Assembly (NCBI RefSeq): GCF_016026235.1
Contig: NZ_CP065614.1
Reading direction: 5' to 3' (one strand)
DNA: 64,000 nucleotides
DNA from: Escherichia coli
GTDB lineage: Bacteria; Pseudomonadota; Gammaproteobacteria; Enterobacterales; Enterobacteriaceae
This document shows positions 22,801 through 25,800 of the stretch, one piece after another (within the stretch, counting starts at the first letter, position 1; every line of letters starts with the position of its first letter). Position numbers: made by a program.

Positions 22801-25800
22801 TATTAGTTCATTGGTTATTTCAATAATAATTCGTATATATGGACGGATCTTTTCTGTATCATGTTTTTCAGATATCCCTTTTGTTAGAGAACACCGCATT
22901 AAGTTAATTATGGCTGGTTTTTTGGTTTATTTTTGGCTTTTTTCCTTTCTTGTTGGCTGGTATAAACCTCAATTAAAAAAAGAATATCAGATGCTTTGTT
23001 ATAATAATAGTTGGTATTATGTTCTTGCTCGTTATGATTCACGGCTCGTTTTGTCTAGTTCATTTAAAGATGACAGTAACAGATTCTTAATATTTAATAC
23101 AGAACAGTCGGGATTTTATGAAATCAATGATGTTTATGTCAGAAAGTAATAATCCTCTCCCACAAAGTGAATTAAATGAATATATAATGCGTTCGAAGTA
23201 TATGTATTGAGCTGTCATACTGAGAAACAAACCTTAGGGCAGCACAATTAAAGCCAGAAACAACTATGCAAGAAAGTTACTAAATAAGTGCTCGGAACAG
23301 TAAAACACTCAGGGGGGACTCAGTCCAGATTATGTAATCAGATAAATTGCCAAACATCACAAATCACCAGCCGGACTGAGTGATGCCGAGCATTGCACCA
23401 ATACCCCGTGATGAACGATGCCTGATGCAGAAAGCTCCCTATAAAACAAAGAACAAAAACTACGACCGGCGATTCACCGTCATACTGATGCTGCATCGTG
23501 GTGACACTGTCTGTCACTTTCATGTTGACTGAACAACTCTGCTGCGAAGAAGGTGTACCGCCGGCGGGATTTGATTGTCCGGCGTCTAGCTTCCACTTCC
23601 CTGATGGAACTGAAAGTTGTTATGGCCGGTCAGCTTGCCCTGTCCGCAGGACATGAGGTGCTGTGACGGACAGCACCAGTAACGGAAAGTGACAATGAAA
23701 ATGAATACTGCGCTGATAGTTGCACTAATGTGTATGTGGTATGCGGTACCCGCTGCTGCAAAAGAGACTTTACTGGCTATGCCACGTAATTCAACAGAAC
23801 ATTGCTATGCGGAGATTAATGTGCACGGACCATATGGGGTGTATTTCCGAGTGGTCCCGCATCCCCCCGGGGGAAAGAGCTGGGTCGAATGTAACAGTGA
23901 CTACTATTACTCTGATAAACCACCGGGAGTACAGATACTCGGAACCCGTGCAGGGTGTCGGGTATACGGAATCTGCGGGACCACCTCGACACTGCATGTG
24001 GCTGGAAGAGGGGTTGTGTGTATTAAAAATATATGCAGTCCACGTGGGATGATAATTCACAGGATACGGAAACGTCCTGTAGTGGCTGTAAGCGATGAGA
24101 TGTGATCTTACCCAGCAATAGTGGACACGCGGCTAAGTGAGTAAACTCTCAGTCAGAGGTGACTCACATGACAAAAACAGTATCAACCAGCAAAAAAACA
24201 CGTAAACAGCATTCGCCTGAATTTTGCAGTGAAGCCCTGAAGCTTGCTGAACGCATCGGTGTTGCTGCCGCAGCCCGTGAACTCAGCCTGTATGAATCTC
24301 AGCTCTATGCGTGGCGCAGCAAACTGCAGCAACAGATGACCTCGTCTGAGCGTGAAAGTGAACTGGCCGCTGAAAATGCCCGCCTGAAGCGGCAACTGGC
24401 GGAGCAGGCAGAGGAACTGGCTATCCTCCAAAAGGCCGCGACATACTTTGCGAAGCGCCTGAAATGAAGTATGTCTTTATTGAAAAACATCAGGCTGAGT
24501 TCAGCATCAAGGCAATGTGCCGCGTGCTCCGGGTGGCCCGCAGCGGCTGGTATACGTGGTGTCAGCGGCGGACAGGGATAAGCCCTCGTCAGCAGTTCCG
24601 TCAGCACTGCGACAGCGTTGTCCTCGCGGCGGCCTTTACCCGGTCAAAACAGCGTTACGGTGCACCACGCCTGACGGATGAACTGCGTGCTCAGGGTTAC
24701 CACTTTAACGTAAAAACCGTGGCGGCAAGCCTGCGCCGTCAGGGGCTGAGGGCAAAGGCCTCCCGGAAGTTCAGCCCGGTCAGTTACCGCGCACATGGCC
24801 TGAGGTGTACTGGCAATAGCGGACACCACCATTTGTTCTTTTTCTAAGCAGTCATCTGATAATATTTTATCCTGAAGGCTGCCGGGGAGATATTCCCCAG
24901 ACGAGAGTGACGACGCTGACGATTGTAGAAAATCTCAATGTATTCCCGTATTACTGAGATGGCCTCATCCCGGCTCTTAAAACGATAGTGGCTCAGGCTT
25001 TCATTTTTCAGCGTTCCCCAGAAGCTTTCCATCGGAGCGTTGTCGTAACAGTTTGAGGTAGCCTGAGTTTAACGGACACTCCTTCCTGAAATAGAATGGC
25101 ATCAGAAGGAGCCAATAATGAGCAGAAAAACCCAACGTTACTCTACGGAGTTTAAAGCCGAAGCCGTCAAAACGGTTCCTGAAAATCAGCTTTCGATCAG
25201 TGAAGGCGCTTCCCGATTATCTGTTCCTGAAGGCACTTTAGGACAATGGGTTACCGCCGCAAGAAAAGGGCTCAATACACCAGGCTCCCGCACAGTGGCT
25301 GAGCTGGAATCTGAAGTTATGCAACTGCGTAAGGCTTTAAATGAAGCACGACTTGAGCGAGATATATTAAAAAAAGCAACAGCGTATTTTGCCCAGGAGT
25401 CGCTGAAAAATACGCGTTAGTCGAACAATGGCGACAACAATTCCCTGTTGAAGCGATGTGTCGGGTACCTGGTGTATCCAGGAGCGGTTATTACGACCGG
25501 GTACAGCATGCCCCCTCAGACAGAAAACAAAGTGATGAGCGGCTAAAACTGGAGATTAAGGTGGCACATATCCGCACTCGCGAAACATATGGAACCCGGC
25601 GGCTCCAGACGGAGCTGGCAGATAACGGAATTATCGTCGGTCGTGACAGACTGGCACGTCTTCGTAAGGAGCTGAGGTTGCACTGTAAGCAGAAACGCAA
25701 GTTCAGGGCGACCACAAGCTCTGACCACAATCTGCCGGTTACGCCGAATCTGCTGAATCAGAACTTTACGCCCACAGCACCTAATCAGGTCTGGGTCGCA

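Follow-up and report, generated by a model that had tools for sequence, protein, structure and literature searches.

We report that two short loci in a 64,000-nucleotide stretch of Escherichia coli DNA (contig NZ_CP065614.1; hereafter the window) are, with high confidence, non-functional relics of IS630-family insertion sequences (IS630/Tc1/mariner superfamily) on the large virulence plasmid (pINV) of Shigella and enteroinvasive E. coli (EIEC). Locus A is the left end of one insertion sequence (IS), and locus B is a piece from inside the transposase gene of another. The comparisons described here demonstrate the homology of both loci to the family, their position within the gene, their orientation, their truncation and their fixation across pINV plasmids. 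The features in question are as follows.

23280..23546, + strand: locus A, 5′ remnant of an insertion sequence of the IS630 family (nhmmer, blastn, multiple alignment)
23383..23532, + strand: truncated transposase frame in locus A, encoding 49 aa if read from the ATG at 23383 and 50 aa if read from the GTG at 23380
63725..63794, + strand: locus B, a transposase gene scrap of ~70 nt covering codons ~24-46 (nhmmer, blastn, BLASTP)

The family relationship was assessed with an nhmmer profile built from five full-length IS630-family elements (model length 1168), to which locus A aligns at model positions 3-262 with E = 8.4e-66. Its 267 bp, equivalent to the left ~23% of an element, comprise the left terminal repeat region, the leader, an ATG at 23383 and ~45 codons. 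The left terminal block (CTAAATA… from 23280) aligns with the left ends of the five elements and the right end is absent; TA dinucleotides are found at the left boundary (23278-23279 and 23281-23282), only one end being kept. By blastn, 23280-23546 aligns to the first ~260 bp of a chromosomal E. coli copy of IS630 (75% over 268 bp, E = 6e-47), and a sensitive blastn search found IS630-family elements of 71-81% identity in 1,399 E. coli records, in which the matches always span the query from ~10 to 229-278 and never extend further. After codon ~45, the alignment with the five family members is interrupted by small frame-breaking indels, and similarity stops at ~23546-23561. A 7-bp hairpin (GGTGACA…TGTCACT) with a T-rich stretch lies at 23500-23518 (+ strand), exactly at a 6-nt insertion of locus A relative to the family; it is the sole terminator-like site in the region, and a weak one, its score being not above chance expectation.

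At the protein level, residues 1 to 43-45 of the locus A frame are homologous to IS630-family N-termini and are followed by a frameshifted tail and a stop codon. The peptide DRRFTVILMLHRGDTV, which lies in this + strand open reading frame (ORF; 23380-23532), is the one that was quoted for the locus in a preliminary description of the window. BLASTP aligns the locus A peptide with an intact IS630-family transposase of 343 aa at 28/43 identical residues (E = 3e-17), and tblastn finds matches in 1,565 plasmids, at the N-termini of ISSpu2, ISEc33 and other genes of the IS630 family. The closest relative found for locus A is an element on an Escherichia albertii plasmid, which is 84% identical and whose transposase shows 73% identity to the peptide over 45 aa by tblastn. 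When an intact close relative was sought, nothing better than this 84% was recovered and no plasmid fell between 80% and 99% at the protein level; an intact copy of locus A's own lineage was not seen in the collections searched. RefSeq/PGAP already labels 23383-23511 as a pseudogene, ‘IS630 family transposase, incomplete, missing C-terminus’. The preliminary description assigned the fragment to coordinates that belong instead to an antisense frame, which is not the source of the quoted peptide:

23338..23523, − strand: spurious 61-aa ORF, antisense to the locus A relic (the family homology is all on the + strand)

Locus B matches the same profile at model positions 175-244 (E = 4.6e-9), a span that overlaps the positions 3-262 covered by locus A. 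Its well-supported core is 63732-63794 and its maximum possible extent is 63704-63830. When 63704-63840 was compared by blastn with 28 Gb of E. coli genomes, the only matches outside pINV were to annotated IS630-family transposase genes, at 79.4% over 63 nt (E = 6e-5; codons 26-46) and at 93.8% over 32 nt (codons 32-42), while BLASTP against transposase residues 26-44 gives 11/19 identical residues (E = 2e-6). The locus is colinear with the family over codons ~24-46 only and neither element end is present; MAFFT alignment, in-register comparison and nhmmer detected no family similarity beyond 63725-63794, either at 63704-63724 or at 63795-63837. A family resemblance of the type GAAAG…CCAT in the 27-nt spacer to the left of locus B had no statistical support and was set aside. 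The peptide MDHARQFTVMLMLHCGDRI, quoted for this locus, is the start of a 75-aa + strand ORF at 63728-63955. That ORF is not a gene but an accidental frame: it starts within the relic and then crosses the end of the neighboring ospC4 gene in the antisense direction.

In an ungapped DNA alignment, 23459-23506 and 63732-63779 are identical at 38/48 positions (79.2%), which is above chance (blastn E = 1e-6 to 2e-6 with the whole 64-kb window as the search space), and the conserved core that had been noticed between the two loci is thus real. The peptide core common to both is (R/Q)FTV(I/M)LMLH(R/C)GD. To the right of this block, the similarity is weaker for a further ~15 nt and then ceases, so that the total span is ~48-62 nt. 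The preliminary description held that similarity confined to so short a stretch would count against a relationship. The similarity is in fact formally so confined, but the homology is genuine all the same, because each locus independently anchors at the same position of IS630-family genes and locus A extends over 267 bp. The two loci resemble each other only because both keep the part of the N-terminal DNA-binding region that is best conserved in the family, with …ARRLTAMLMLHRGD… invariant in all five of the intact relatives. Over a 62-nt block, A and B are 71% identical and are no closer mutually than to other family members. Two bases common to A and B differ from those of all five relatives compared and produce F-T-V in place of L-T-A; this is a weak hint of a common sub-lineage, the sample being too small for more.

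The suggestion that the two loci are N-terminal remnants of a repeated element is therefore upheld in its essence, since both derive from the 5′ part of transposase genes, which encodes the helix-turn-helix (HTH), but its details need correction. The two copies do not lie on opposite strands: they share one orientation, on the + strand. The family is not unknown, because both loci match IS630-family transposase genes and A had already been annotated in RefSeq. Finally, the family is otherwise represented in the window, by the IS630 3′ end at 63618-63703 described below. The profile search found exactly three significant family pieces in the window (23280-23546, 63620-63702 and 63725-63794). 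A candidate for a fourth, at 26315-26381 (+ strand), is probably a chance match, with an nhmmer E-value of 0.036, a bias exceeding the score, and 41-45% identity over 22 aa in tblastn (E = 0.25-0.33). It matches the C-terminal (catalytic) part of the profile and has an IS3-family fragment on one side and a minus-strand ORF of 89 aa on the other.

No catalytic-domain homology belonging to A or B was detected by tblastn, and nhmmer found nothing beyond model position 262 for A or 244 for B. Because the DDE catalytic domain, situated in the C-terminal two thirds of the transposase, and a second end are lacking, A and B are fragments that are unable to transpose.

The neighborhoods of both loci are 99-100% identical to pINV of EIEC and of Shigella flexneri, S. 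sonnei, S. boydii and S. dysenteriae; pWR501 is among the pINV plasmids that match both loci, at 99.7-100% identity. Locus A is present in 117 plasmid records and locus B in ~115-130, nearly all at ≥99% identity, and at least 115 plasmids from the four Shigella species and EIEC carry both loci at this level. Such identity across pINV is as expected for old relics in a shared backbone. The plasmid is crowded with the nested debris of IS elements. In published analyses, IS elements both whole and partial, IS630 among them, reportedly account for a large share of pINV; a search of the Shigella IS literature returned general statements only.

The 340 bp downstream of ospC4 (63501-63837) are occupied by stacked IS pieces. 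An IS3-family element ends at ~63566 and is followed in turn by an IS66-family scrap, an IS630 right end and the IS630-family internal scrap that is locus B. The features around locus B are:

63567..63617, strand not assigned: terminal piece of an IS66-family element, ~50 nt (blastn, 88-94% identity)
63618..63703, + strand: right end of a separate, left-truncated IS630 copy (blastn, nhmmer, tblastn)
63838..64000, − strand: ospC4 (type III secretion effector gene), 3′ end, as annotated by RefSeq for the identical sequence in NZ_CP011417.1 and pWR501

The IS66-family piece, located between the end of the IS3-family element (minus strand) and the truncated IS630 copy, has blastn matches in >2,500 E. 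coli records, at the ends of elements annotated as IS66-family and close to tnpA or tnpC. The terminal sequence of the IS3-family element beside 63567 is, we presume, IS600-like. The IS630 fragment, which contains the last ~18 transposase codons (…PFPGGKHGLAKV*) and the right terminal repeat, matches IS630 at 94.7% identity over 76 nt and sequences annotated as IS630 in many E. coli genomes at 92% over 86 nt; nhmmer places 63620-63702 at model positions 1081-1163 (E = 2.8e-22), and tblastn aligns the codons with residues 326-343. Its right repeat (63677-63703) is the reverse complement of the left terminal block (17-36 against 63699-63680), and a TA is present at the right boundary (…TATTTAG, 63697-63703), only one end being kept here as well.

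Over the 62-nt block, locus B shares only 66% identity with IS630 but 79% with another family member, whereas the right-end fragment beside it is ~95% identical to IS630. Locus B is therefore not part of the adjacent IS630 copy, but derives from a different, older family member. In the EIEC plasmid NZ_CP065616.1, the same IS630 copy keeps >300 nt more of its 3′ portion and has the same junction to B. The spacer between the IS630 right end and B (equivalent to window 63704-63731; reverse complement in that record) differs there, reading GGAAAGAGGGAGTGACCATCT…TAAACCACGCC, and is a net 9 nt shorter; the spacer is thus variable, whereas B itself is 99% conserved. On the other side, the ospC4 stop codon is at 63838 (minus strand), 43 nt to the right of locus B. 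Homology with ospC paralogues begins only at ~63831, which puts B outside the ospC duplication unit. The RefSeq records inspected leave three of these pieces unannotated: the IS66-family scrap, the IS630 right end and locus B.

There are several other ways in which these loci might be explained. One is that the resemblance of A and B is a chance match between unrelated sequences. The shared stretch is indeed short (48 nt, ~16 residues) with no extension on either side, but an E-value of ~1e-6 within the window, together with the fact that A and B each match the same IS630-family position in databases of 7-28 Gb and in the profile search, already refutes this idea, and its probability is next to nil. 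Another is that B is a rearranged piece of the adjacent IS630 copy, arising with the right end in one event through a head-to-tail dimer or an aberrant excision. Only ~22-28 nt separate locus B from the IS630 right terminal repeat on its left, and the two share one orientation, as would fit a tandem second copy with a 5′ deletion. We consider this very improbable, however, because the right end is ~95% IS630 but B only 66% in the 62-nt block, with a closer match (79%) to other members; because a tandem copy would need the precise deletion of ~170 nt of left end; and because the IS630 part of NZ_CP065616.1, a divergent plasmid with the same junction, differs by ~5-8% from the window while its B is 99% identical.

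A further alternative is that the 49-aa peptide of locus A, which includes part of the HTH region, has been kept as a small protein with a DNA-binding role; it might, for instance, bind the ends of IS630-family elements and act in trans as an inhibitor or regulator. Truncated transposases act in this way in some other IS families. In its favor, the frame that starts with the ATG at 23383 runs for 49 codons without a stop, and its first 43-45 residues share 65-73% identity with functional transposases. Locus A also retains its native leader and left end, where an intact element has the transposase promoter, and the sequence is identical in ~115 plasmids. Against this, residues that are invariant in the five intact relatives have changed in A (RRLTAM to RRFTVI, ERR to ERC, AIH to APY), the frame breaks within the HTH region so that no complete DNA-binding domain is left, no sigma-70-like promoter was scored in 23200-23750, PGAP treats the locus as a pseudogene, and its conservation is that of the surrounding backbone and hence uninformative. 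We give this alternative very little weight. Similarly slight is the prospect that the A stub is expressed as a small protein or RNA that hinders IS630-family transposition, or that B adds to the 3′ untranslated region of ospC4. Nothing suggests a function for either locus: they have no transposition machinery, and invariant residues are altered in each. Rfam scans of both neighborhoods gave only LAGLIDADG-2 at chance level (19.8 bits against a gathering threshold of 94.9, E = 0.49) and nothing near B, and promoter and terminator scans of the loci showed no excess over shuffled sequences.

Some observations do weigh against our interpretation of A and B as dead IS630-family fragments. In every pINV copy of A the 49-aa frame is uninterrupted, although a near-identical backbone would predict the same, so that this provides no argument for selection. 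Scans of both peptides against the Pfam-A and NCBIfam hidden Markov models (HMMs) returned nothing at E ≤ 10; the family assignment consequently rests on pairwise and custom-profile homology, as is expected for fragments of 20-50 aa, which fall below the length that such models need. Locus B is short and its individual pairwise scores are modest (E = 6e-5 against 28 Gb; tblastn E = 0.004-0.008 in the window). Moreover, no longer version of B was found in other plasmids, all of the pINV copies being alike.

A history can be proposed for the two relics. Locus A is what truncation has left of a diverged IS630-family element, whose whole DDE catalytic domain and right end were lost. Locus B is a piece of another IS630-family element, which would formerly have been just downstream of ospC4. 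In the most economical order of events, an IS630 copy would have inserted into or beside this older element, on its left, and IS66-family and IS3-family elements would later have removed most of that IS630.

Several neighboring features were also noted. Locus A is flanked by two conserved hypothetical pINV genes, at 22433-23149 (+ strand) and 23689-24105 (+ strand). The first encodes a 238-aa protein with several hydrophobic segments (WP_005059327.1) and the second a protein of ~134-138 aa with a signal-peptide-like N-terminus (WP_011114759.1); the leader of relic A is directed towards the latter gene. The segments 24159-25032, 25456-26181 and 62346-63500 are copies or fragments of one IS3-family element, with ORFs that share MCRVPGVSRSGYYDRVQHAP… and …ESFWGTLKNESLSHYRFKSRDEAISVIREYIEIFYNRQRRHSRLGNISPAAFRIKYYQMTA. 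An IS110-family-like ORF of 398 aa at 60921-62117 fits the IS-rich context of pINV.

Much of this is already known, in that the IS family and the plasmid are both long known and locus A is already annotated, and there is no new element, gene family or mechanism. The one addition is an annotation for 63567-63794, which can be described as a stack of three IS scraps: the end of an IS66-family element, the right end of IS630 and an internal piece from an IS630-family element. The arrangement illustrates the layered IS insertions that are typical of Shigella virulence plasmids, and the scraps could serve as stable markers of the pINV backbone.

Finally, the two loci may be compared with known elements. 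With IS630 (Shigella sonnei) and its family, e.g., ISEc33-like and ISSpu2-like elements, locus A shares the left block, the leader, the start codon and 45 N-terminal codons, in the same order and with the same spacing, while B shares codons ~24-46 only. Unlike those elements, A and B are without the DDE catalytic domain and a second end. The identity of locus A to IS630 itself is only 75%, and the highest to any element found is 84% (that of the E. albertii plasmid). The partial IS elements of the Shigella virulence plasmids pWR100, pWR501 and pCP301 offer a further parallel. The absence of B and the adjacent right end from the annotation of the RefSeq records inspected is an annotation gap and not a biological difference, and A and B are likewise partial IS elements of such plasmids, 99.7-100% identical in pWR501 and other pINV.
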